Origin: Bacteroidales bacterium | GTDB taxonomy: Bacteria; Bacteroidota; Bacteroidia; Bacteroidales; JAFGXI01 | Direction of reading: 5' to 3' | DNA length: 64,000 nt | Assembly: GCA_016936665.1 (NCBI GenBank) | Contig: JAFGXI010000017.1 | Coordinates: 20,146 to 84,145, forward strand | Shown: positions 5,486 through 46,417 of the stretch, one piece after another | Numbering within the stretch: the first letter of the stretch is position 1 | Layout: every line of letters begins with the position of its first letter | Translations under genes and position numbers: made by a program | The notes under the pieces: model-generated | What the model was told of the DNA's origin: nothing | The model's database searches: none | Seen by the model: only the letters and a program-made list of their open reading frames with translations

Positions 5486-8400
5486 TTATTCTTTAATTAA
5501 TTGCATTATTTCTGTATTGCCATTCACATTGACTTTAACAATATAAACACCTTCGGCAAGTTTCGAAACCGCATCTTTCAGCAATTCAACATCGTGGTAA
5601 CCCTCAGGAAGCTTGAGTGTTTGCATTTCTACAACGACTTCGCCTAAAGCATTATACAATGTGTAAGAAATAGCTTGGTCGTATTCTAAAACCATTCCTA
5701 TCGTTACTTGATGATTAAATGGATTTGGATAAACGCTGATATTTGAAACGCCTTCGAAACCATTCTTATTAAAGCTCAATTCGAAAGGTTCGTCTAATGT
5801 ACCTTGCCTGTCGTTTGCAAAGAAGACCATATGCTCGTTAGCCTCCATGCTTCCTAAATGATGGACGGCTTCAAAGCGAATCACTTCTTTAGAATTAGCA
5901 TTGATGGTTATAAAATGGCGCACACTTCCATCTTCCAAAATTTGTGCTTCGGCTTCACCACAAAGGCCTGCTTCGTTATAAGCCTTCAGTGTGTAGGCAG
6001 AAGGGTTGTCAATCTGAAGCTCAATAATCATTGCCATATTATCTTCTGTTGAAGGTAAATTAAAGATTTCAGGATCTTGACTTACAGACCTACTTACTAA
6101 ACCGCCATCGTAATTAAGGACACCGCCATTAGCACTGTACATTACATAACCCTCACCGGCTTGCATATAAGTTAAACTACCAACCCATCCTAATACAGAA
6201 CTATAAACTGCAAATTGGTGTTGCGACTTAATCATATCGTCATCTTGCGGATTGAGAGAAGATAAAGCCTCATCGATCGGTTTTTGAACCGATAAAGGAT
6301 AACCCACCCAGTTCCAACCGGCCGCTATTGGTATTTGAATGGTATCTGGGACGACTCTGTAACCCGACATTACTAAAGTTTGCGCCTGAGCTACTTTTAG
6401 CTTATAAGCACTTGTTACCTTAAGCTGATCAAGTTCTCCAAACCAATAGCCGTTAGCACGAACGTAAGCAAATTGTTGTTGATCTTTTACAAAATCGTTT
6501 TCATGTTGATTGAGTTGTGAGAAGGCTGTGTTCAGATCGTTAAATTCATCTGAATACACATTGAAAGATATCCAATTCCAACCCGCATCAAGTTGAATAT
6601 TTTGCTCTATATAATTGGTTGCATTAATTGGTAGAGGATTGCTCACAGAACCATACAATTGATCGGCAGCAAAAGTAAACTCTGGTGTAACCCTTGTATA
6701 AACGTTGCCTGTGCTGGCATCATATACTTTAAAATACATGGTCTCGCCATTCGTATTAGCATAAGCACTAATAAATGTTAGGTAAATATTTGCATCTTCG
6801 AAATAAGTGACATGAGATACACCTCTGCATTCATCACCAACAAAGCAAGCGACGATATCATTTTCGTCGGTAGATAAAGTATTATTGACACTGAGTTGGC
6901 CGATGACATTAGCTGATAAATCAAAGTTAGAAGGATCGACCGACCAATCTGGCGCATGACCATTTACTTGAACAGAAACACCTAAGCGCTCGTTATAATC
7001 CATAGAAGCGACTAATGAAATATCTGTTTGGTATGAACCAATATTAAGTTCTGGTAGAATGGTAATTTCTATCGTTTCCGTCTCAAGAGGAGTGAGCGTG
7101 CCACTGCTTGGAGAAACGTTCATCCATGAAGGAATATTAAGGATTTGATAATTTTCGTTTAAGCCTCCTTTATTTTGAATATCTACAGTAACAGTCGTCT
7201 CTTCTTCAACAAACTTTTCGATTGTTAAATCCTGAAGATTCCATACCACCTGATTTTTATCTACAAAAGCATTCCAAGATAAAGTAGAAGGCATCATGTT
7301 ATTGTTCATATCCTTTACACGCTTAATCGAAATGTCTAAAATTTGATTTTCGATTAAATTAGCTTGAATATTTGGTGTAATCACCACCTCGTCATCGTTG
7401 ACGACGTAGGTGTGAGGAATTGATACTTCCGGAAGTTGTAGCTTAATATTAGGGCTTTCCGTTGTAAAGTAAGCACTCTCTATTAAAGTATCCCCGGCAA
7501 TTCCAATATTGTCTTGCGTAAAGTTGGCCGATGTTTCGTTACTAATACTAGGATCGGCAATGGTAACATCCTCGAAAGGGACATAAGCTTTAAGCCCTAA
7601 CTCGTCTCCCACTAAATTATGACTCATGTAACGTTTTATTTGAGACTGAGTTCTGGCAGCATTCCACACTCTAAACTCGTCTATCATACCAGTTGTAAAC
7701 TGATCGTAATAATCTTGCATAGACAAATTCCACCAACGAGCCCCTAAAACCAATCTACTAGCACCAAAACCTTCGAAGTTAGCTACCGATTGTGTTTTCA
7801 CAAGTTCGCCATCGAAATAGACCGATAAGTAACCAATTCGGTTCATACTCATTGCAAAGTGATGCCATTGATCATCCAAATAATTTTGAGCAGCTATGGT
7901 GACATTATTACCATTATTCGTTATGGTAATGTTGCCATCGCTACCGGCTGTTATATTCCAAGAATTGATATTTGGTTCCTCATCAAAATTACCATTAGAA
8001 ACCAGTGTAGCATTGCTTACAGGCATCGCCATTTTATACCAAAATTCGAGAGTAAAATCGGATTGACTAGAGAAAGCCATCTGACCGGCAGGCATATCTA
8101 ATACATTGCTACCATTCAAGGCCAAAGCATGACCATTTCTACCAACCTGCCAAGTTGCATTGACAATAGCATTTCTACCAAAAGCAATATCTTCTGCTCT
8201 ATCGCCATTGGCTTCGTTCATTGGCCACAGACCATATAAACCTTGCTCGTATCCATTTAATATCTGCGCTTTCTGAGCGGCTATCTCTGTAGATGTTCTA
8301 GCATAATTCCAGATTCTAAATTCATGCATATTTCCATAAAAAGCAGAAGCATCATCGGCACAATACCCTATACTTAAACTGCCCTCTAAAGAGGTATACA

Positions 8401-11400
8401 CATCGGCTTCGAACACCTCAGGCGTACCTCCGGCATCGCTTAAAGCAAAGAGGGTAAAACCAGCCTCAGTCTCTTCATCGCCCTGATTGTAAACTACCGA
8501 GTAGAACGCCCAGTTACCAATATTGGTATAAGTTTCGCTTGAGCTAATCGTCTGGCCATCAACTTCAACTACAAAATGATTGGCAGCATCAAAGCCAATC
8601 CACAAACCACCTTGCGAAGGCGAACCAACAGAAACTAAATTGCTTCTTTGATCTATAGCATCACGCTTTGCCCAAAACTCAATTGTAAAATTCGTATGAT
8701 CTAAATTGATGTGATTGACCTGCAAATTATTGGCGATACCATCGAAATGAATCGATGCATCGTGTAATAAATAAGGATTATTAGTCAAATCGGTACCATT
8801 TGTAATACCACGAACATCAACATAATCGACATGCGAATATAAATCGCCCGAATTGATGGTTTCGTTAAACTTAACCGAAATATCTTCGCCATAAGACAAA
8901 ACGCCATCGGATGGCTGTGGCGTACCAAACGGTGTAGGTACTACTCTATCTATCACTCCATTTAAAGGATCTGTAATATATTCCGAGCCATCGGAACAAT
9001 TCGATTTTAAATAAATCTGATACTGACCATCGTTTAGGCTGGACAATGGGAAACTATAAGCCATGGTAGCATTGCCATTGATCCATGTTTTAGGCTCGTC
9101 GGCATCTAGAAAGTCTGTTTCATCTTTATAAAACACCATGGCAGTTGTTCTAGAACCACCCGGTATTGCATATTGGAATTCGATGGTTTCGAACTCAGTG
9201 CTATTGATATTATAATCTGAGATATTGAAACTTAAAGTATCATTATTATAGACATTGGCGGTCCAGTTATCATAAATCTGTTCGAAATCGACTGATGTAC
9301 AAGTTGGTGTAAAGTAAGCCGAAATAATAATAGTATCGGCAATATCGTCAACATCGTCGGTAGGATCGAACTGACATTGAGAATGTAAAATAACCTGAAT
9401 ATCTTCGTATTCGTTAATATCTTGCTGACCTTTTTCGATGGTAAGTGCTTTGTAAACAGTCTGTCCGGCAGGTATTAAAACAGCCACAGGTGTCCCCGAA
9501 ATACTTGCACCATCCATTTTTACAACAGCACCATTTGGATTAGACGTTGGCTCAACATATAAATTGTACCAACCATCATCCCCTGTTTCCGAGTTATTAG
9601 ACATGGCCAAATTAAAGACGGCAGCTTCTGTTTCCGGCACACCGGCAACGATATTATTATCGACAGAAATATTTGGCATTTCAATTTGCATAGTCGCTTG
9701 CGAAAGAAGCGTACCAGGATTATAGTATTCGGTATAAACAGCACCCTCGTATGGGCAAGAAGACTGACCTCCAACAGTTCTAAAGATTGGACCATAACCT
9801 TCTTCAGCATCTTTTCTCACATCTACTGAGAAATAATCGCCACCATCGCCATCGGCTAAAACAAAACCAATGGTCTGGCTGGTGGTTGTGTCGTTAACTG
9901 TATTGTTAGCAGTTGTGTATTCGTAGCCCTCTTCTAAGTTTAGTGTAAAGCCAAAACCATTTACAGAGAAGCCTAGCTCGGCCATAAAGTGTGGTGAAAG
10001 TGTAAACTCGAAGGTTTTATTCTCAGAACTTAAACTGTCAATTTCAACACTTGCTTCATAAACAACACCTGCATCAAATGATATATTCGAGGGAAAATTA
10101 GGATCGTCTACTGCTGTTACTTTAGCTTTTTCGTTATTTTTAAGAACCTTTATCCATTTATTAATCTGATTATTGTAATAACGAACCGAATCGATTAAAT
10201 CATCATTATCAGGGTTTGAGAAGACATAACTAGGGCCATCGTATTTATCGTCGGAAGCTTGAGCGCCCCAAATAGCATTATCGTCGTTATTGCTTAAAAA
10301 GTTTGAACTTTCTGTATCTGTTTCGACCAAAGTGTAATACTCATTATTGTTATCGTAGGCCAAGTTTCGAATCATTTGAAGATTCGGAATCAAATAGTTT
10401 TCGATATGATTTTGCGTATAAATAAAGGTTGTAGACACCTCTTTCCCCATGTGTAAACCAGTCTTTTTAGCAATTGTATAATAGGTGCCGTCGATTAATA
10501 TGGTATCTTCTATGGTTTCACCATCAACAGGCACCTCATCAACATCCATAATATTGATAAAGTTTGATAGACCGTAAATAAGATTATTACCATGACCTAA
10601 AAATAAGTCGCCCATATCACCAACATAAGCAGGATCTTCGCTGGTCGAGAAAGATTGATTGAACTCAATCGTTACATTTTCTTCGAACTCATTACCCCAA
10701 ACATGACTGTGCTCAACACCGACACCTATATTATTTTCAACTTCAAATTCGGTTTGGGTCGAGAAGAATGGCGTTCCTGTTACGAAAGTGGTTGATGTTC
10801 CTAACTGATACACTAAAGAAGAATTGCCTGTTTGTCCATGCGAAGAACTTGTAGTCACTGTTTTAGAAATCTCTAAACCTGCTTCCATGTACGAATAACT
10901 GTTCGAGCCAGGGGGGTCGCGCAAGACAAAATCGATGCTTGTAGGACCTTTAGTTACAAAGTTGCTACCTGTTGGGATATTACCCGACACATAACCATAA
11001 AATGGCGATTGCGACCACTCGTAATAATTAGAGCCTACTAATAATTTAACCTCTAATTTTTTAGTGTATGGTGCAGATAAATTCGGATAACCTCCAAAGA
11101 ACTCATATAAAGCTTGACCATTATCATTAAAACCTAGGGAAACTTGATTGGTATTGTTGGCACATTCGTTTATAATTTGTAACTCACCATCGGAAACCAC
11201 AACAGTATCGACAACGCCTGTTTCATCATTTGTATAGGTTTCGAAAGCCGTCACTATTAACTGATATGGCTGACCTAAAGAATACACCGGTTTTCCAAAA
11301 TTATAGTAGGCTGTATCGTTAACCATACCTGCTATGTTAATGGTATCTTGGGTATCGTTACCCGCATTTACTATATATTCCTCATCACCCAAGAACTTGG

Positions 11401-14400
11401 TACCATGTATATTATCAACTGATAATTGCGGCGTAGAGCGCCATATCCAATTTTTCTCTAAATTGTATTCATATGTTGTATCTAAAGACATTGAGCCGTC
11501 ATTATCGACGGTGTCTATAGTATATTGCAATGGGAAACAATTGGTTAGGGAAACCAACTGCGACTCTCCCACTAAGAAATTGTACTCATTGTTCACTTTT
11601 ACAGTATCAATCTTATAAACTTCAGGAGGCAAGTTGATTTCATACATCCCTGTATTATCGTTGGTATAGACAACAAGTGTTGTTTTATTACCATCTTCAA
11701 CATCGAGAATATAATCTTGCTCTGTAGTGAAGGTCAGCTTACAAATACCCAAGTTGTTGACTATAGGATTTTCATCCGAGCCCAAAGGCTTAGCTTGTTC
11801 AACAGCTCCCCCGACCACTCTACCAGCCAATTTAACAGTGGTATTGTCAAAGAATTCAATATTATAAATAGGTTCGTTAAAGAAATGATAGGTAAAAGCA
11901 GAATCGCTTTGTTGCAATGGGTAATAAGCCGATACAAAGGTATGTCCTGATTTTTCAACACTGATGTAATGCTCGCCAATCGGAACTTGAATATCGAACT
12001 GACCACTGTTATCGGTCATTACAGCCTGATTGTTGTAGCCTTGAATATAATTACCATCGATTTTAACGTAGGCATTTTTCACGGGCATGTTTGTGTTTTC
12101 GTATGTTAAGCGCCCTGTAGCTCTAAATGAAGACTGATCGGTAAAATCGACATTATTATGTACAGGTTCACTATCGCCGATAAACAAATTGACATCGGTA
12201 GGGTTAAACTCATGCACCCCTAGAAATGGAACCACACTAAAAATATTACCGGAACCGGAATACCTTACCCCTTTAATAACATAATTACCGTTGGCATCGG
12301 TAATGCCAGATGGGTGTAATTGTTCGAAACTAGGGGTTTGATTGGACCAAGTTGCAAATACTTGTTCATTGCCCTGAGGAACGACCAAATGACGTTTATT
12401 AAATTCGCCATCTGTTTTAGAAATATCGTAGGCCGCTGTACCAAAACCTTCGTCTAAACGGTAATATGCAATTAAATGCGCTTCGTTTCCATTGAGGATT
12501 CTAGTATGATCGTTTTCTATTTGAACATCGGATCTAACAGATTGATAAAGGCGAACCTCATCGATGTTACCTTTGTAAAAATTTGAGTATCCATTAGCAG
12601 AACCAACCATCACTTTATTTGCACCCATTAGATTGATATTATCTACATCCATAGCTTGTAAAACCGCCATCGAATTATCCAGAGTTCCATCGTTATGAAA
12701 TTCGCCATTAACATAGAGTTGCATAAGACCTGTTTCCGGATCGAAGTTAACCGCTAAATGCGCCCATTCATCTGCATTTAATACAGAATCGCTTTGTACA
12801 GTAACTAAAGCGGTTGTGCCTTGAATATTGCCCGTCATGATACTTGAATTTATACCACAAACTGGTCGCATATTGCTTAAGCCTAAATAGAAAATTCCTG
12901 AATAAGCCGAAAAGATAATTTTTTTCTCGTTACCGGTCATTGAGGAAGGCTTTACCCATACATCGCAAGAAAATGGTTGGTATATAAGCGAATCGTCAAC
13001 AAATTTGTCAGTACCTAAATAATCTTGAATCCCGTCGAAATATAAACTGTAAGATTGAACGCTTTCTTCTGAGCAGATGCGCACTTCTGCATTTTCTACG
13101 GCATTACCTCCTTGATAGGTTATTTTACCTGCTACTATGCCAGTACTGGTTCTAAAGCCGACTGTTCCTATAGTATCGGAGCGCGTTTCGACTCCGGCAC
13201 AATCGCCAACAGCTTGAATATAATAAATGTACATTTCGTTAGCTTCAGTGCTAATATCTTCATAATAAGTTGCATTAGCATTATTAACAGTAGTTAACAA
13301 AGAAAAAGTTTCGCCATTTTTCTTTCTGTAAATCTCATAATAATCAACATCTCCTAATTTATTTGGATTAGCCGTCCACTCCAAAACTACTTTTTGGTTA
13401 AAATATCCCTTAGAAGCGTCGAAATACGACTTAGTTTCTGCATTTTCGACATAAGTAAATACATTATCAAACTTATTTTCGAGCACTGAGTAATTAGACT
13501 GAAGTGAAGTAGGACCAGCTGCCGTATTACAAGAGTTCCAAGCCTCAATTTTATAATAATATTCATTACACATTAAAGCCGTGCCGTCTTCGTATTCACG
13601 TGCATCTGGACTTATACTATTATCTAACAACTCGAAGCTACCTGCACTACCTTCTTTTCGGTACACTTTAAATTCTGTTGGAGGGCCGCCTGGTCCTGCT
13701 GCCGTATAATCCCAAGTAGCATAGATATTGCCATTTAAGGTATCGGACTGAGCGTTGCTTGGAGCTGCTGTACAAGCTTTATTACCCATACCAGAGGTTG
13801 TAGCGCTCCAGTTTTCGCAACCATCTCCCCCGCCATCAATTTTATACAAAATCTCCTTGCCATAATCATTCACATCTACATCGTAAGTGTAGGATGTTAA
13901 AGAGGAATTAACGTTACTATTTAATGTATACCAAGTGCCATTTACCTGATATTTAATTGTGTAAGCTACCGGCAAGGCATCGGGGGCTACCCACGTCAAC
14001 TCAACTGTACCATCGCAACTGGTGTGGGGCACATCCAAGTTTTGAACCTGTGCATACATTTTAGTAAGAACAGTAATATGTTCTTCTTCTGATTGATAAA
14101 CTGAGCTTGACTCGTTAAGAGGATTATCGTTGTTGTACCATGCATTGGTTACATAATATTCGTATTCTGTAGCAGCTTCAATGTCTTCATCGATATAATA
14201 GTTAGAATTGGTTCTACACAAAAGTGTATAGTTACTCTCTGCAGGAGTCGTTAATCGTTTACGATATACATAAGCGGTACCATGGTCGTCTTTTTCCCAA
14301 TCCAAGCGATTTGTAATACATGTTTTAGAAATTGTTAAGTTATAAACTTTTGGTGGATGGGCTGGATGATATTCATTATAATTTGTATTCATGTTGTATT

Positions 14401-15286
14401 CGACCATACCTATACCCAGAGTCTCATGAGTTGATGAGTTGATGTTATAAGAGTTTGAACTGGTATAATCTCGAAGCATATTAACAATTAACTTATTATG
14501 AAATACATCGTCGATGTCTGTAAAAACGGATGATGCACCAGAAAACGACTCATAGCTATGAAAGGTTTTGTCTTTTACATATGATATTTGAGATTGGTCT
14601 AAAACCATGTCCCAATGTCTGAAACCGGACATATAACCGTAAAACGACTCGTCATGATCTTCGGCAGTGCTACCGCCAAGCCCTTCTCCTAAATATGTGT
14701 ATGTTTGTCTGTCGTAGTTTCCATCAGAACTACTGTAAGAAATAAGATCAAAGCCTGTTTGTGTTTGTTTAAGACTACCATTAACATATAATCGAACCGT
14801 CCCATCTTCATCGGTTGTACTGGGAGAATCGAAAGTAACGCAAACATGATTCCATCTATCTTTCCAATTATTGGTATAATCTGTTTTAGAAAATTCCCAT
14901 ATTAAATCGCTGTTACTACCAGAGTCATTCCCATCAGAAACTCTAATGGCCCAACCCGAAACTGACTTACTTTCAAAAGCCACTAAGAAAGAATTAAAAT
15001 CGTCATCCCATCTTCCATAGCCAAACATAAACTCGTAAGCTTCTGAATTGACATCCCACTGGGGATAAACCCAGAATTCGAGCGTAAAATCTTCGTCCAT
15101 ATACCACTGCATACCCGAACTTTGTTGAGCATTTGAAATTCGAACATAAGAATTACGCTCAAAATCGGTGGCATAGAAAGGACGATCTACGCTTGTATTA
15201 CTCGAAAGACAAGTTTGAGAAAATAAACTTTGAATTGTACTCAACCAAACGATAAGAACAATTGCAGAAAACATTTTTTTGTTCAT
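5486..15286 (-). CDS. giant (3266 aa) T9SS-sorted surface protein with at least five LamG (concanavalin-A-like) domains, FN3-like and carboxypeptidase-regulatory-like domains
   Basis: Single uninterrupted 9.8-kb ORF with signal peptide MNKKMFSAIVLIVWLSTIQSLFSQ. LamG C-terminal signatures recur (IDEVRLYQSVRSDVQI, MHEFRIWNYARTSTEI, IDEFRVWNAARTQSQI). FN3-like segments are present (VELTWVAPD..YTIKYQVNG; FKVYRKEGSAGSFELL; YYEIYRKKNGETFSLL). The T9SS CTD is VYPNPFNHQVTIGM...GVYIVKVNVNGNTEIMQLIKE. Confidence 0.9.
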   Translation of the reverse strand: MNKKMFSAIVLIVWLSTIQSLFSQTCLSSNTSVDRPFYATDFERNSYVRISNAQQSSGMQWYMDEDFTLEFWVYPQWDVNSEAYEFMFGYGRWDDDFNSFLVAFESKSVSGWAIRVSDGNDSGSNSDLIWEFSKTDYTNNWKDRWNHVCVTFDSPSTTDEDGTVRLYVNGSLKQTQTGFDLISYSSSDGNYDRQTYTYLGEGLGGSTAEDHDESFYGYMSGFRHWDMVLDQSQISYVKDKTFHSYESFSGASSVFTDIDDVFHNKLIVNMLRDYTSSNSYNINSSTHETLGIGMVEYNMNTNYNEYHPAHPPKVYNLTISKTCITNRLDWEKDDHGTAYVYRKRLTTPAESNYTLLCRTNSNYYIDEDIEAATEYEYYVTNAWYNNDNPLNESSSVYQSEEEHITVLTKMYAQVQNLDVPHTSCDGTVELTWVAPDALPVAYTIKYQVNGTWYTLNSNVNSSLTSYTYDVDVNDYGKEILYKIDGGGDGCENWSATTSGMGNKACTAAPSNAQSDTLNGNIYATWDYTAAGPGGPPTEFKVYRKEGSAGSFELLDNSISPDAREYEDGTALMCNEYYYKIEAWNSCNTAAGPTSLQSNYSVLENKFDNVFTYVENAETKSYFDASKGYFNQKVVLEWTANPNKLGDVDYYEIYRKKNGETFSLLTTVNNANATYYEDISTEANEMYIYYIQAVGDCAGVETRSDTIGTVGFRTSTGIVAGKITYQGGNAVENAEVRICSEESVQSYSLYFDGIQDYLGTDKFVDDSLIYQPFSCDVWVKPSSMTGNEKKIIFSAYSGIFYLGLSNMRPVCGINSSIMTGNIQGTTALVTVQSDSVLNADEWAHLAVNFDPETGLMQLYVNGEFHNDGTLDNSMAVLQAMDVDNINLMGANKVMVGSANGYSNFYKGNIDEVRLYQSVRSDVQIENDHTRILNGNEAHLIAYYRLDEGFGTAAYDISKTDGEFNKRHLVVPQGNEQVFATWSNQTPSFEQLHPSGITDANGNYVIKGVRYSGSGNIFSVVPFLGVHEFNPTDVNLFIGDSEPVHNNVDFTDQSSFRATGRLTYENTNMPVKNAYVKIDGNYIQGYNNQAVMTDNSGQFDIQVPIGEHYISVEKSGHTFVSAYYPLQQSDSAFTYHFFNEPIYNIEFFDNTTVKLAGRVVGGAVEQAKPLGSDENPIVNNLGICKLTFTTEQDYILDVEDGNKTTLVVYTNDNTGMYEINLPPEVYKIDTVKVNNEYNFLVGESQLVSLTNCFPLQYTIDTVDNDGSMSLDTTYEYNLEKNWIWRSTPQLSVDNIHGTKFLGDEEYIVNAGNDTQDTINIAGMVNDTAYYNFGKPVYSLGQPYQLIVTAFETYTNDETGVVDTVVVSDGELQIINECANNTNQVSLGFNDNGQALYEFFGGYPNLSAPYTKKLEVKLLVGSNYYEWSQSPFYGYVSGNIPTGSNFVTKGPTSIDFVLRDPPGSNSYSYMEAGLEISKTVTTSSSHGQTGNSSLVYQLGTSTTFVTGTPFFSTQTEFEVENNIGVGVEHSHVWGNEFEENVTIEFNQSFSTSEDPAYVGDMGDLFLGHGNNLIYGLSNFINIMDVDEVPVDGETIEDTILIDGTYYTIAKKTGLHMGKEVSTTFIYTQNHIENYLIPNLQMIRNLAYDNNNEYYTLVETDTESSNFLSNNDDNAIWGAQASDDKYDGPSYVFSNPDNDDLIDSVRYYNNQINKWIKVLKNNEKAKVTAVDDPNFPSNISFDAGVVYEASVEIDSLSSENKTFEFTLSPHFMAELGFSVNGFGFTLNLEEGYEYTTANNTVNDTTTSQTIGFVLADGDGGDYFSVDVRKDAEEGYGPIFRTVGGQSSCPYEGAVYTEYYNPGTLLSQATMQIEMPNISVDNNIVAGVPETEAAVFNLAMSNNSETGDDGWYNLYVEPTSNPNGAVVKMDGASISGTPVAVLIPAGQTVYKALTIEKGQQDINEYEDIQVILHSQCQFDPTDDVDDIADTIIISAYFTPTCTSVDFEQIYDNWTANVYNNDTLSFNISDYNINSTEFETIEFQYAIPGGSRTTAMVFYKDETDFLDADEPKTWINGNATMAYSFPLSSLNDGQYQIYLKSNCSDGSEYITDPLNGVIDRVVPTPFGTPQPSDGVLSYGEDISVKFNETINSGDLYSHVDYVDVRGITNGTDLTNNPYLLHDASIHFDGIANNLQVNHINLDHTNFTIEFWAKRDAIDQRSNLVSVGSPSQGGLWIGFDAANHFVVEVDGQTISSSETYTNIGNWAFYSVVYNQGDEETEAGFTLFALSDAGGTPEVFEADVYTSLEGSLSIGYCADDASAFYGNMHEFRIWNYARTSTEIAAQKAQILNGYEQGLYGLWPMNEANGDRAEDIAFGRNAIVNATWQVGRNGHALALNGSNVLDMPAGQMAFSSQSDFTLEFWYKMAMPVSNATLVSNGNFDEEPNINSWNITAGSDGNITITNNGNNVTIAAQNYLDDQWHHFAMSMNRIGYLSVYFDGELVKTQSVANFEGFGASRLVLGARWWNLSMQDYYDQFTTGMIDEFRVWNAARTQSQIKRYMSHNLVGDELGLKAYVPFEDVTIADPSISNETSANFTQDNIGIAGDTLIESAYFTTESPNIKLQLPEVSIPHTYVVNDDEVVITPNIQANLIENQILDISIKRVKDMNNNMMPSTLSWNAFVDKNQVVWNLQDLTIEKFVEEETTVTVDIQNKGGLNENYQILNIPSWMNVSPSSGTLTPLETETIEITILPELNIGSYQTDISLVASMDYNERLGVSVQVNGHAPDWSVDPSNFDLSANVIGQLSVNNTLSTDENDIVACFVGDECRGVSHVTYFEDANIYLTFISAYANTNGETMYFKVYDASTGNVYTRVTPEFTFAADQLYGSVSNPLPINATNYIEQNIQLDAGWNWISFNVYSDEFNDLNTAFSQLNQHENDFVKDQQQFAYVRANGYWFGELDQLKVTSAYKLKVAQAQTLVMSGYRVVPDTIQIPIAAGWNWVGYPLSVQKPIDEALSSLNPQDDDMIKSQHQFAVYSSVLGWVGSLTYMQAGEGYVMYSANGGVLNYDGGLVSRSVSQDPEIFNLPSTEDNMAMIIELQIDNPSAYTLKAYNEAGLCGEAEAQILEDGSVRHFITINANSKEVIRFEAVHHLGSMEANEHMVFFANDRQGTLDEPFELSFNKNGFEGVSNISVYPNPFNHQVTIGMVLEYDQAISYTLYNALGEVVVEMQTLKLPEGYHDVELLKDAVSKLAEGVYIVKVNVNGNTEIMQLIKE

Positions 15287-29300: not shown

Positions 29301-29712
29301 GGTTAACAATGCCATTGTTTTGATAGACTACATCGACTTACTCAAAGCCAGAAAACGTGTGGAATTAGGTATGGAAGAAGATGCAGTGCTCCCTCTAGAA
29401 GATGCCATCGAATGTATTGTAAAAGGAGGCCAAACCCGTTTACGACCGGTTTTGCTTACTGCAATAACTACAATTTTAGGATTGTTCCCTATGGCTGTCG
29501 GGATGAATATCAATTTCGAAACCCTTTTAAGCGAGTTTAACCCCCAAATTAGTTTTGGAGGTGATATGGCCGCTATGTGGGCTCCTCTTTCGTGGACGGT
29601 TATTTTCGGATTAACATTTGCTACCTTCCTAACCTTAGTTATTGTTCCGGTTATTTATAAAATAACCACCAAATGGGAAGTGAAAATTAAAACAGCACTT
29701 GGAAAAGTTTAA
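26305..29712 (+). CDS. efflux RND transporter permease (AcrB/HAE family), unusually long at 1135 aa
   Basis: Typical AcrB blocks are present (VDNAIVVVENIYR; VVNNAIVLIDYID), with 12 or more hydrophobic segments and the expected operon context. Confidence 0.9.
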   Translation: MEQKVREFKLTTFALKNKTSVYLLTLVIAIGGMLAYKSLPKELFPEVVIPYVMVQTAYPGNNPADIENLVTRPLEKELDGIKGLKKLSSTSMQDVSLISLEFTFDTKIKDALQDVKDAVDKAKNDLPNDLPNDPQVQDLDLTEFPFININVSGDYSIDQLKEYGDIMEEEFKGIKEVSKVAVQGISEKEVRIDVDQRKLESFQMSFGDIEEAIAQENLSLGGGQVKINGTRRAVRIIGEYENMDQIRNTIVKNEDGNIIYLKDVANVTYTYEEPESISRLGETPVISLQVIKKSGENLLSASEHVYQTIDKIRKEHLVPENLEIIATNDQSDMIKKQLNNLENSMIISMIFVVVVLFFFLGTRNALFVGLAIPMSMFLSFMVLGFMGSKINMMVLFGLILALGMLVDNAIVVVENIYRFIDHGYKKIDAARLAVGEVAIPIIASTATTLAAFFPLVFWDSLMGEFMYFLPITLIIVLTSSLFVALVLVPVVASSLIKEGNEKEIINKKRAHRWMAIFLILSIPFYILGWYTLANLLFIAAFVTFANVYIFNKLGHWFQDVFLVNLEAWYLALLNYVIRGRMPNIIIISAFLLLIGTIQLLKLSEPDIVFFPESDPNYINIKTDLPIGTDIEETDAFMKQLYQKVYEVTLPDSSIIKSIVTNVGTGAKTQDNMGGSIAEAYEGLITISFIDFEDRNGISSQKTMNHISEAIINKYPGVKISISKERKGPPTGKPINLEIIGKDYNQLIRLTDTVQSIIDNKHIPGIEGLNVDLDLGKPELLVHINREEARRFGMSTGMIASSIRTALFGKEISDYKDGEDEYPIQLRLRPDQRYNIPALMNQKMTFRNKKGKIMQIPISAVADVSYNTTYGSIKRKDLDRVITIYSNVLEGYNANEINTKLKEVLAENGHLFGDGYKYKFTGEQEEQAESMAFLITAMGIAVALILIILVSQFNSIVKPLIIASSIVLSTIGVFGGIATFGMDIIIVMTGIGIVSLAGVVVNNAIVLIDYIDLLKARKRVELGMEEDAVLPLEDAIECIVKGGQTRLRPVLLTAITTILGLFPMAVGMNINFETLLSEFNPQISFGGDMAAMWAPLSWTVIFGLTFATFLTLVIVPVIYKITTKWEVKIKTALGKV

Positions 29713-29715
29713 GAA

Positions 29716-29739
29716 TAGTTTTTAGAAGTCCACCTTAAG
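29716..29739 (-). repeat. degenerate solo copy of the GGGGACTTCTAAAAATTAGTCC repeat family
   Basis: The minus strand reads CTTAAGGTGGACTTCTAAAAACTA. Compare 37876-37907 and the termini of the element at 44343-44611. Confidence 0.4.
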
Positions 29740-29761
29740 TTTTGGTTTTTTAAATAACGAG

Positions 29762-37850: not shown

Positions 37851-37878
37851 AGCGACTCAAATGGGTCGCTTTTTTTTA
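37851..37878 (+). terminator. rho-independent terminator of gcvP
   Basis: AGCGAC-N8-GTCGCT followed by T8. Confidence 0.7.
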
Positions 37879-37907
37879 AGGGGACTTCTAAAAATTAGTC
37901 CCCTTAA
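37876..37907. repeat. solo palindromic copy of the GGGGACTTCTAAAAATTAGTCC repeat (11-bp arms, 10-nt loop)
   Basis: TTAAGGGGACT-tctaaaaatt-AGTCCCCTTAA. The core is identical to the right terminus of the element at 44343-44611. Confidence 0.6.
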
Positions 37908-37916
37908 GATATTCGT

Positions 37917-38084
37917 TTAAATAAACATATGAACATCTCTGTTGTAATCTTCATTTTGAAAAGATTGAATAACAGACTCTACATTATTTTGCCCTTTATT
38001 AATAAAAGACTTAAACCACTTTTTTAAAGATTCCATCCACATCGGATATTTTTTTTCTGAAATTTGCTTATAAAATTTTAACAT
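37917..38084 (-). CDS. possible small ORF (55 aa), hypothetical
   Basis: Hand translation: MLKFYKQISEKKYPMWMESLKKWFKSFINKGQNNVESVIQSFQNEDYNRDVHMFI. It is too short for the ORF track and has no recognisable motif. Confidence 0.2.
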   Translation of the reverse strand: MLKFYKQISEKKYPMWMESLKKWFKSFINKGQNNVESVIQSFQNEDYNRDVHMFI

Positions 38085-38408
38085 AATTCAAATTTTTAGG
38101 TAATGTCAATTTACGAGATTATATTATTTTGGTTACAAATACTATCTCAGTGTATAAGCTAAGCTTTTGTACCCCACGCTTTTTGCTGTGAATTTTTTAT
38201 GCTAAATAGCATGTTTTAAGTTGGAATTTTATTTTTTGATGTCATTTTTTTTTTTTTTGTTTTGCTAGGTAAAAATAACTATTTACTATTGCCTTTACTT
38301 GTAACAAAGGCTCATTGGAAAAAAACTTTTGAAAACACGCTAGCACCCCAAAAGAAACCCCAATTCTGTAAATGGTAATAATTATTAACCATTAATTTTA
38401 AATTAAAA

Positions 38409-43778: not shown

Positions 43779-44342
43779 TTATTCCCGAATAATTTTAAAC
43801 AAACCACCCATGTCCAGTTTTATAATACTCGATGCTTTACCTTTTTCAATGTCATCTTGCCGGTATTGCACAATATAATCGACGGCTTGTTTAATCTCAT
43901 CACTAATTTCGTCGAAGATAGTTGGCGCTATATCTCCACTAACATTGGCCGACGTTGATACAATTGGTTTTTGCAATAGGCCTATCAATTTCCGGCAAAA
44001 TTCGTCATTTGTCAATCTTATGCCTATAGAACCATCTTCGGCAATCAGATTTTGAGCTAAGTGCTTGGCTTTAGGATAGATAATTGTTAGAGGTTTGTCG
44101 GTATGCTCAATTAAATCCCAAGCAATTTCCGGGATTTCTTCAACATACATTTCCAAACGAAAAGGCGTATCTATTAAGCAAAGCATACTTTTTCTATCGG
44201 AACGTTGCTTAATTTGATAAATCTTTTTCACAGCGTCCTCGTTTTCAGCATCGCAACCAAGCCCCCAAATCGTGTCGGTCGGATACAAAATTACTCCACC
44301 TTGGCGTAGTACATCTACAGCTTTTTTAATATCGTCGTTCAT
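43779..44342 (-). CDS. tsaC: L-threonylcarbamoyladenylate synthase (TsaC/YrdC type)
   Basis: 187 aa. Contains ILYPTDTIWGLGCDAENEDAVKKIYQIKQRSDRKSM and STSANVSG. Confidence 0.85.
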   Translation of the reverse strand: MNDDIKKAVDVLRQGGVILYPTDTIWGLGCDAENEDAVKKIYQIKQRSDRKSMLCLIDTPFRLEMYVEEIPEIAWDLIEHTDKPLTIIYPKAKHLAQNLIAEDGSIGIRLTNDEFCRKLIGLLQKPIVSTSANVSGDIAPTIFDEISDEIKQAVDYIVQYRQDDIEKGKASSIIKLDMGGLFKIIRE

Positions 44343-44611
44343 TATAGGGGACTTCTAATAATTACTCCTTTCTGAGAAACAAAGATAGTAAATAAGATAC
44401 AAGGCATAAATTTTTATTAATAGCCGTAGCTATTTATAAAAATTTTAACGCAGTAGATTGTTTGCCATCTTTGTTCCCAAAAGGCTTTCATAAATCTTTT
44501 GCCTACTACCGAAAAATTATTCAAGTTATTTCGATAGCTCTCAAAATTTTTATTTGTATCCAAAATTTTATGAATGTCTCAGTTTGGACTAATTTTTAGA
44601 AGTCCCCTATA
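44343..44611. mobile_element. MITE-like non-coding element (269 bp) with ~35-bp imperfect terminal inverted repeats
   Basis: Left end: TATAGGGGACTTCTAATAATTACTCCTTTCTGAGAAAC. Reverse complement of right end: TATAGGGGACTTCTAAAAATTAGTCCAAACTGAGAC. There is an internal 17-bp-arm hairpin (AAATTTTTATTAATAGC/GCTATTTATAAAAATTT) and no ORF. The element fills the ispG-tsaC gap apart from a few bases. Confidence 0.5.
44380..44387 (-). promoter_or_regulatory. candidate -7 box TATCTTTG inside the MITE-like element, reading out toward tsaC
   Basis: Minus-strand TATCTTTG, 38 nt upstream of the tsaC ATG (44342). Confidence 0.3.
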
Positions 44612-44617
44612 GTTACA

Positions 44618-46417
44618 TTATGGTTCAACCCAATCGCCATGCTCTTTTATTATAGCAATTAACTCATCAACCGCTTCTTCCGAAGGTATATTTCTACGGA
44701 TCACGTCCTGACCTTTATACAAACTCACCATTCCTTTTCCGGCTCCAACATAGCCATAATCGGCGTCGGCCATCTCGCCTGGTCCATTTACAATACAGCC
44801 CATCACTCCTATCTTTAACGATTTTAAATGCGACAAACGCGATTTAATTTTATCGGTAGTTGTCTCTAAATCGAACAAGGTTCTACCACATGAAGGACAA
44901 GAAATAAATTCTGTTTTCGACATCCTGACGCGAGCTCCTTGTAAAATATTTAAAGCTATACTTGCTGCATTCGTTGTAGAATGCTCCGTTTCTAACCAAA
45001 TGCCATCGCCATAACCATCGACCAACGAAGGTCCAAAATCGCAAGCTGCATGAATTTCGAGGTTTTTTCCTATTTTAAAATGACGTCGAATTACTGTGGG
45101 TTGATTTAAATTCAGATTCGCCAATTTAAAAAAGAAAGTACGTATTTCTGCAACCGCATGAAGACTTGTCGCATTAAACACAAACGTAATCTCTGCATTT
45201 GAATCAATTTGTTCCAAAAGATCTATTTGCGATATTTCTAGCTGAACCCATGCTTTAGAATTTGGGCGGTGTATAAAATATTCATCCATCGACATCAATG
45301 GAAAAACTTGTTCTTTAGATGAATAATTTTCCCAAGGTACCAAATAGCTTTTTTGTTTATCGATATGTTCAGGCATGCTTTCCTGAAAAATCACATCTGC
45401 GTGCAAGTGCTCATTGACTCTGCCAACAACGATTGGTTTAGTATTTCCGCCAATAAATTTATAATCCGTTGATTTTCTTTTTTGATATTGATAAGGTGAA
45501 TAATCAACATCTGACACCGCTGGCAAGTTCACTGTGTTTGCCAAGCTGAAATGTTCAATAATAGTCCTCGCCACCGGTAATTCCGCTTTAGGATGCTCGG
45601 TTAAAGAGACACGAATGGTATCGCCAATCCCATCGGCCAATAAAGCCCCAATTCCAATAGCCGATTTTATTCGGGCATCTTCGCCATTGCCTGCTTCTGT
45701 AACACCTAAATGAATAGGGAATTGCATTTTTTCCTCCTTCATTTTTGCAGCCAACAAACGTGTTGAATGGGTCATCACCTGAGTATTGCTGGCTTTCATC
45801 GAAACAACCACATTTGCAAAGTTTTGTTGTTTACAAATTCGTAAAAACTCCATAGCGGCTTCGACCATTCCTTCCGGTGTGTTGCCATAACGATTGACAA
45901 TTCTATCGCTTAAAGAACCGTGGTTCGATCCCACTCTAATTGCCGTTCCATGTTTTCTGCAAAGCTCTAAAAATGGGATAAAAGTTGCTTCAATTCGTTT
46001 TAATTCTTCGGCGTAACTTTCATCGGTATAATCATGAGATTTAAAAACTTTTTTATCTACGTAGTTTCCTGGATTAATGCGTACCTTTTCGACAATTTCG
46101 GCTGCAATATCTGCTGCTTTTGGTGCAAAGTGAATATCGGCTACCAAGGGGACTGTTATTCCAAGTTCTTTAAGAGTTTGTTTAATATTTGCTAAGTTTT
46201 CTGCTTCTTTTTTCCCGGGAGCTGTGATTCTTACCAACTCGCAACCTGCTTCAACCAGCTCTTTCACTTGCGCTACCGTTTTATCAGTGTCCATTGTGGA
46301 AGTATTCACCATCGACTGCACCACTATTGGTTGCTCTCCACCAATGACAAGCGAACCTACTTTAACTTCTAGTGTAGGATATCTTTTATATTTAGAATAA
46401 TCTTCGCAATAATTCAC
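44618..46417 (-). CDS. ispG: 4-hydroxy-3-methylbut-2-en-1-yl diphosphate synthase, long form with an inserted domain
   Basis: 599 aa. Contains GcpE blocks (VRITAPGKKEAENL; RINPGN; CPSCGRT...GCIVNGPGE). Confidence 0.9.
   Translation of the reverse strand: MNYCEDYSKYKRYPTLEVKVGSLVIGGEQPIVVQSMVNTSTMDTDKTVAQVKELVEAGCELVRITAPGKKEAENLANIKQTLKELGITVPLVADIHFAPKAADIAAEIVEKVRINPGNYVDKKVFKSHDYTDESYAEELKRIEATFIPFLELCRKHGTAIRVGSNHGSLSDRIVNRYGNTPEGMVEAAMEFLRICKQQNFANVVVSMKASNTQVMTHSTRLLAAKMKEEKMQFPIHLGVTEAGNGEDARIKSAIGIGALLADGIGDTIRVSLTEHPKAELPVARTIIEHFSLANTVNLPAVSDVDYSPYQYQKRKSTDYKFIGGNTKPIVVGRVNEHLHADVIFQESMPEHIDKQKSYLVPWENYSSKEQVFPLMSMDEYFIHRPNSKAWVQLEISQIDLLEQIDSNAEITFVFNATSLHAVAEIRTFFFKLANLNLNQPTVIRRHFKIGKNLEIHAACDFGPSLVDGYGDGIWLETEHSTTNAASIALNILQGARVRMSKTEFISCPSCGRTLFDLETTTDKIKSRLSHLKSLKIGVMGCIVNGPGEMADADYGYVGAGKGMVSLYKGQDVIRRNIPSEEAVDELIAIIKEHGDWVEP

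Follow-up and report, generated by a model that had tools for sequence, protein, structure and literature searches.

The stretch of DNA analysed here (the window; 64,000 nt of a Bacteroidales contig) carries on its minus strand tsaC (43779-44342; Sua5/YciO/YrdC family) and ispG (44618-46417; GcpE), which are parted by a non-coding, AT-rich segment of 269 bp at 44343-44611. The G+C content of this segment is 28.6%, compared with 35.6% across the window. Its left edge, 44343, is the base adjoining the tsaC start codon (the gene starts at 44342), and 6 nt (44612-44617) lie between its right edge at 44611 and the ispG stop codon (44618-44620). Re-reading of the coordinates confirmed the position, length and non-coding character that a first-pass annotation had given to the segment: its open reading frames (ORFs) extend to at most 48 aa (the longest two, of 48 and 45 aa, have TTG starts), match no Pfam or NCBIfam family and do not occur in the protein collection. 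These ORFs were rejected as real genes on account of the missing family and collection matches, together with frame-breaking gaps and a stop codon in the alignment with a related element (L007/L008, described below). Elsewhere in the window, a very long minus-strand ORF (5486-15286) encodes 3266 aa.

The segment is bounded by terminal inverted repeats of 35 nt (44343-44377 and 44577-44611) that match at 30 of 35 positions (86% complementary). None of 100,000 shuffles of the segment reached 30 matches, the maximum being 23, in agreement with the imperfect repeats of about 35 bp that had been described at its ends. The two repeats differ at five of their 35 positions and have only 16 identical bases in common; between the TATA flanks, the segment measures 261 nt. 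Each terminus had also been described as a small hairpin, which holds for the right end, where the hairpin is perfect (GGACT...AGTCC), but not fully for the left, where four of five positions pair (GGACT...ACTCC). The AT-rich interior hairpin with 17-nt arms is real and sits at the centre of a larger imperfect palindrome with 47-nt arms that are 74% complementary and a 4-nt loop, the predicted RNA fold of which has an energy of -29 kcal/mol (z = -7.2). Neither a transposase gene, as had been noted, nor a full second copy of the element was found within the 64-kb window. Miniature inverted-repeat transposable elements (MITEs) are delimited by a size of ~50-1000 bp and by the lack of transposase coding capacity, and the 269-bp segment falls within these bounds. 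The features of the segment and of two related sites are listed in Table 1.

Table 1. Parts of the element between tsaC and ispG, and related sites in the window
Feature	Coordinates	Strand	Basis or remark
Left flank TATA, putative 4-bp target-site duplication	44343..44346		Same tetranucleotide at 44608-44611
Left terminal inverted repeat GGGGACTTCTAATAATTACTCCTTTCTGAGA	44347..44377	+	Inverted-repeat search, shuffle test
Interior imperfect palindrome	44378..44475		RNA fold; arm and loop best conserved against L007/L008
Candidate -7 box TATCTTTG	44380..44387	-	TAnnTTTG match, outward-reading, 37 nt before the tsaC ATG
Rest of non-coding interior	44476..44576		Collinear with the L007/L008 element; ORFs without protein family match
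Right terminal inverted repeat, minus-strand reading GGGGACTTCTAAAAATTAGTCCAAACTGAGA	44577..44607	-	Inverted-repeat search, shuffle test
Right flank TATA, second copy of putative duplication	44608..44611		Equals left flank
Probable collapsed copy TTAA-GGGGACTTCTAAAAATTAGTCCCC-TTAA	37876..37907 (24-bp core 37880-37903)		Perfect hairpin 3' of the gcvP terminator
One-ended degenerate trace GGTGGACTTCTAAAAACTATTC	29716..29737	-	Two mismatches in first 18 nt; IRR-like

The ends of the element recur elsewhere in the window. An exact repeat of the first 22 nt of the terminus lies at 37880-37901, inside a hairpin with a perfect 11-bp stem (TTAAGGGGACT/AGTCCCCTTAA; fold -18.4 kcal/mol, z = -4.9). A deletion that joined the AGTCC pentamer of one inverted repeat to that of the other would leave exactly the 24-mer at 37880-37903, and the site as a whole is probably, as read from its sequence, a collapsed second insertion of a like element. 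A more degenerate trace has the IRR-like form GGTGGACTTCTAAAAAC (29713-29741), is enclosed between two TTAA tetranucleotides directly after the stop codon of an acrB-like gene (26305-29712) and resembles the right inverted repeat (IRR) of the parent insertion sequences described below (L064, L017). Further recurrences of the terminus in the window were weaker matches, all at the level of shuffles.

A public assembly of the same organism points to additional copies. Exact TsaC and exact IspG are each encoded on one contig in Logan; the contig bearing the identical tsaC stops after 32 nt of the element, and that bearing the identical ispG after 31 nt. Logan assembles its contigs with k = 31, and a repeat boundary leaves a contig whose final k-mer starts right at the edge of a sequence. 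The breaks imply that other loci share ~30 nt or more with each end, because the element's own inverted repeats, with only their 16 shared bases, cannot cause them. We therefore infer that contig ends 31-32 nt inside each terminus represent a repeat signature. The other end of the 6126-nt tsaC-bearing contig falls, by arithmetic, at ~38249. This position lies at a long T run, most pronounced at 38245-38262, within an AT-rich stretch of ~500 nt without an ORF (37910-38408).

IS5-family insertion sequences in Flavobacteriales and Bacteroidales assemblies have, as their left end, the same tip as the element, GGGGACTTCTAA. A scan with the query GGGGACTTCTAANAATTANTCC of a collection holding one genome per species, which does not include the host genome, returned three loci (L003, L004 and L005). 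L004 and L005 are two contigs of a single Flavobacteriaceae metagenome-assembled genome that have their first 141 nt in common, then diverge, and have different flanks. Their left inverted repeat (IRL) differs from the first 22 nt of the element at one position at most, and the terminus is followed inward, ~90 nt on, by a transposase ATG and MYKTQGKKGLFDEEFTEER. L003 is a short, decayed copy, a translated fragment of which matches NF033581 (E = 2.6e-6). A search with the N-terminal peptide led to a protein (P0127) that bears the NCBI name 'IS5/IS1182 family transposase, partial', and whose gene in L016 has GGGGACTTCTAAAATTTA upstream. A copy of ~1.3 kb with both ends was found in L064, with the IRL GGGGACTTCTATAATTTA, an IRR reading ...AATTTTTAGAACCCACC and a broken reading frame; the IRR form that it shares with L017 is AGGTGGGTTCTAAAAATTC. 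When its frameshifts were bridged, the repaired L064 transposase scored 257 bits against NCBIfam NF033581 (cut-off 140 bits) over profile positions 3-285 of 285, and the conceptual protein also matched Pfam DUF772 and DDE_Tnp_1. L017 and L065 hold further decayed copies, and the termini in L016, L064, L017 and L065 are more diverged than those in L004 and L005; in this set of copies, too, the transposase gene starts ~90 nt inward of the terminus. Because the same ends flank the L064 copy and its relatives with an NF033581-type transposase, the termini of the window element are, judged by their sequence, those of an IS5-family insertion sequence.

This group of insertion sequences appears to be mostly decayed or fragmented by assembly in the assemblies at hand. 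No intact parent transposase was found among 104 relatives of the N-terminal fragment (P0127-P0230), all of which have at most 126 aa and most of which lie on tiny contigs, and the copies inspected on longer contigs (L003, L017, L064 and L065) have frameshifts, stop codons or internal deletions. Four further loci (L060-L063) were considered as bearers of the same ends and rejected, as they have a related DUF772 ORF but lack the GGGGACTTC ends. The 3' non-coding region of the insertion sequences contains a GATA/GATAGATAG microsatellite (1170-1210 in L064, ~3490-3530 in L017 and ~3290-3305 in L065), which is kept in L006 at 2665-2687. In L065 (1-2418), the decayed copy adjoins a gene with matches to TraG-type P-loop and DUF87 ATPase domains, a neighbour that suggests possible carriage on a conjugative element.

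The element itself, rather than only its ends, has a counterpart elsewhere. A metagenome scan with the terminal 22-mer yielded three contigs, all of which end inside the element. Two of these (L007 and L008) represent the same locus in two other metagenomes, in which the terminus lies directly 3' of the galK stop codon and has a TTAA flank. The 201 nt available of the L007/L008 element align collinearly with the minus-strand sequence of the window element at 70% identity, with three single-base gaps; interior identity is 68%, compared with 29% expected from composition, and the best block spans the loop of the interior palindrome and one of its arms. As aligned, the small non-coding element is thus a family of its own with a homologue at an unrelated locus, a family of two members (the window element and the L007/L008 copy), the latter of which is cut off. 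Searches of viral contigs gave a single chance match inside a phage gene for an 18-mer of the terminus, no match for a 25-mer of the conserved block, and 42 matches for an interior 16-mer, none of which extended similarity beyond ~23 nt when the element was compared with all fetched loci. Plasmid and phage collections contained no match to the element.

The homologue bears on how the element arose. A full insertion sequence between ispG and tsaC could have lost its interior in place, leaving a dead remnant that was never mobile as a small unit, and deletion derivatives are indeed known in this group: L006 consists of the IRL and ~60 nt joined to the GATA-repeat 3' non-coding region, and most of the transposase gene is lost from L003 and L065. 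However, derivation of the element interior from the interior of an insertion sequence was considered and rejected, as alignment scores against the insertion sequences found were at shuffle level, whereas the same interior is collinear with, and 68% identical to, that of the element at the galK locus. Furthermore, the retrieved insertion sequences have an IRL that is distinct from their IRR, but the window element has an IRL-type sequence at both ends. Because of the interior unlike that of the insertion sequences and the L007/L008 homologue, we favour spread of the non-coding unit as such over its formation on the spot by deletion, and regard a relic formed in situ as improbable.

A role for the segment as a structured intergenic element maintained by the host, such as a REP-like element, a processing or stabilizing hairpin or a small RNA gene, would make its likeness to insertion sequence ends secondary. 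The very stable fold predicted for the whole segment (-91.7 kcal/mol, z = -10.6) would suit such a role, as would the solo hairpin at 37876-37907, which sits just after a gene terminator in the manner of REP elements. However, such stability is a trivial result of the inverted repeats, transposase-bearing elements have the same termini, and an Rfam scan of the whole window matched no family. Nor did a sigma-70/terminator scan, which is uninformative for this phylum, find a G+C-rich stem with a T-run in the element. Maintenance by the host in this sense is quite improbable.

The flanks are consistent with insertion into a short AT-rich site. Across 11 IRL-type ends, GGGGACTTCTA is nearly constant and the outer four bases vary (TATA, TTAA, TTTA, TAGT, ATAT and TTGT). 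Because the flanks vary between copies while GGGGACTTCTA stays constant, TATA belongs to the flank and not to the inverted repeat. Each of the two complete units in the window has the same palindromic tetranucleotide on its two sides (TATA at 44343-44611 and TTAA at the collapsed copy, 37876-37907), which would fit a 4-bp duplication, whereas L064, the sole insertion sequence copy with both ends, is flanked by TTA and TTA, a 3-bp rather than a 4-bp match, and would fit a 3-bp duplication better. Matching flanks are weak proof of duplication in this setting because TATA is palindromic and seemingly a preferred target. The IS5 subgroup is catalogued in ISfinder as generating 4-bp duplications at YTAR-like targets, which the TTAA flanks fit.

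Removal of the element together with one TATA leaves TAA-TGTAAC-TATA-ATG, a 10-nt ispG-tsaC spacer like that at an operon junction. The predicted empty site, with ispG joined directly to tsaC, would read ...TAATGTAACTATAATG... at the junction. The element is not conserved at this locus, a finding in keeping with the view of the segment as a mobile element: in the nearest TsaC relatives (L010, L011 and L013; 72-78% identity, with none closer than 78% found), the gene upstream of tsaC is not ispG but a GT4 glycosyltransferase gene, at a distance of 16, 38 or 114 nt. No TAnnTTTG motif lies between the glycosyltransferase gene and tsaC in these relatives, the genes downstream of tsaC also vary among them, and no empty site was found through TsaC homologues, as the relatives have a different upstream gene. 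Because the relatives have the glycosyltransferase gene in this position, tsaC is usually a distal operon gene, and its adjacency to ispG is lineage-specific. That recombination between two element copies gave rise to the adjacency, so that the element marks a rearrangement junction, a reading to which the absence of the adjacency from the nearest relatives and the five differences between the element ends would lend themselves, is highly improbable, given that the identical TATA on both sides fits simple insertion, that excision leaves a tidy, operon-like stop-to-start spacer, and that tsaC synteny varies among the relatives themselves, so its loss needs no element.

We conclude that the segment is very probably a MITE with IS5-type ends that inserted into a former 10-nt ispG-tsaC spacer, presumably mobilized in trans. 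The anatomy of the element, the recurrence of its ends, their link to IS5-family elements and the homologue at another locus are direct observations, from which the mobilization in trans, the 4-bp duplication, the former spacer and the promoter activity are deduced. The MITE-like character proposed in the first-pass annotation is supported by the recurrence of the ends at 37880-37903 and 29716-29737, by their presence in other genomes as IS5-family ends, and by the L007/L008 homologue.

The first-pass annotation had further pointed to the octamer TATCTTTG within the element, and this sequence does occur on the minus strand there and again at 23202-23209. At the element, 37 nt separate it from the tsaC ATG; at the second site, it lies 24 nt before an ORF starting at 23234. 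In the Bacteroidetes sigma-A consensus, a -33 TTTG precedes the -7 TAnnTTTG by ~19 nt. Of 39 genes examined in the window, 8 have TAnnTTTG 21-54 nt before their start, among them ispG (38 nt) and the ORF that begins at 23234 (24 nt), compared with ~0.02 expected per gene; the overall frequency of the motif in the window is 0.56 per kb per strand. Because it is concentrated 21-54 nt upstream of genes, the motif behaves as the -7 box of the phylum. The distance between the candidate box and tsaC is typical of the other promoters in the window, and a leader starting just after the box is predicted to be essentially unstructured (-2.2 kcal/mol). Reading by eye upstream of TATCTTTG showed no good TTTG for a -33 element with the usual spacing. 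At the right end, the position symmetrical to the box reads TATGAATG instead, and the end of the L007/L008 copy that is available lacks the box, which is therefore not a demonstrated feature of the family. It is plausible that a promoter borne by the element now drives tsaC.

Together, these observations suggest a course of events by which the locus could have reached its present form. An IS5-type transposase (DUF772 and DDE_Tnp_1) encoded elsewhere would recognize termini of the GGGGACTTCTAA type and insert the element at TATA in the 10 nt that formerly lay between the ispG stop and tsaC start codons, with duplication of TATA. The insertion would part tsaC from ispG, its probable former co-transcription partner. 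A transcript reading through from ispG would then fold the whole element as one long hairpin, with its 3' arm ending at -1 of the tsaC AUG, and the outward-facing -7 box, 37 nt from the AUG, would start a short, unstructured leader, such that at least part of tsaC transcription would now probably start inside the element. A bolder extension, which we consider unlikely, is that the element has been co-opted: the -7 box would now serve as the main promoter of tsaC, an essential tRNA-modification gene, the read-through hairpin would uncouple this gene from ispG, and collapse through microhomology deletion between inverted repeats, as at 37880-37903, would be one route to REP-like intergenic hairpins in Bacteroidales.

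For annotation, 44343-44611 should be labelled as a mobile-element insertion and not as an ordinary spacer, and the element accounts for the break at ispG-tsaC in short-read assemblies of this organism. The analysis defines, in marine Bacteroidales and Flavobacteriales, an undescribed MITE together with the group of IS5-family ends that match it (GGGGACTTCTAA); in the literature searched, the terminus string occurred in no relevant paper and once in an unrelated context. If the internal promoter is real, the insertion adds one more mobile element that rewires expression of an essential gene, a phenomenon already documented for Correia elements and Porphyromonas gingivalis MITEs, and involves no new mechanism.

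Among known systems, IS5-family insertion sequences of the NF033581 type have the same terminal GGGGACTTCTA(A/T)AA and insert into short AT-rich sites, but carry a transposase and distinct IRL and IRR, whereas the window element is 261 nt long, lacks a transposase and has an unrelated interior. The functionally closest picture is provided by the Correia elements of Neisseria, small inverted-repeat elements that occupy TA-containing intergenic sites, have outward promoters depending on the copy and, when co-transcribed, fold into long hairpins that RNase III processes. They are unrelated to the window element in sequence and host phylum, and the window element is known from sequence alone. We know of no transposase identified as moving Correia elements, whereas the window element has an evident IS5-family source.

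Closer in host are BrickBuilt and other MITEs of P. gingivalis (MITEPgRS/MITE464 and MITE239), which are non-coding, intergenic and have IS5-family-like inverted repeats with short, variable duplications (PMC4596501); their host belongs to the same order, Bacteroidales, and in being non-coding and intergenic with IS5-like ends they resemble the window element. A P. gingivalis MITE with IS5-like ends showed outward promoter activity in lacZ fusions, and the promoter of argS has been suggested to lie within a neighbouring MITE copy (PMC4596501). However, the termini of BrickBuilt (GAGACCTTTGCA) differ from GGGGACTTCTAA, the elements are not similar in sequence, and BrickBuilt has a 23-nt minisatellite that the window element lacks. 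The ATR element of Neisseria meningitidis is a type II MITE that was assigned to the IS5-family ISNme1 through its inverted repeats (cited in PMC4596501). Although its termini and host differ from those of the window element, the two are alike in that only the terminal inverted repeats link each to its presumed parent insertion sequence, the AT-rich interior being unrelated.
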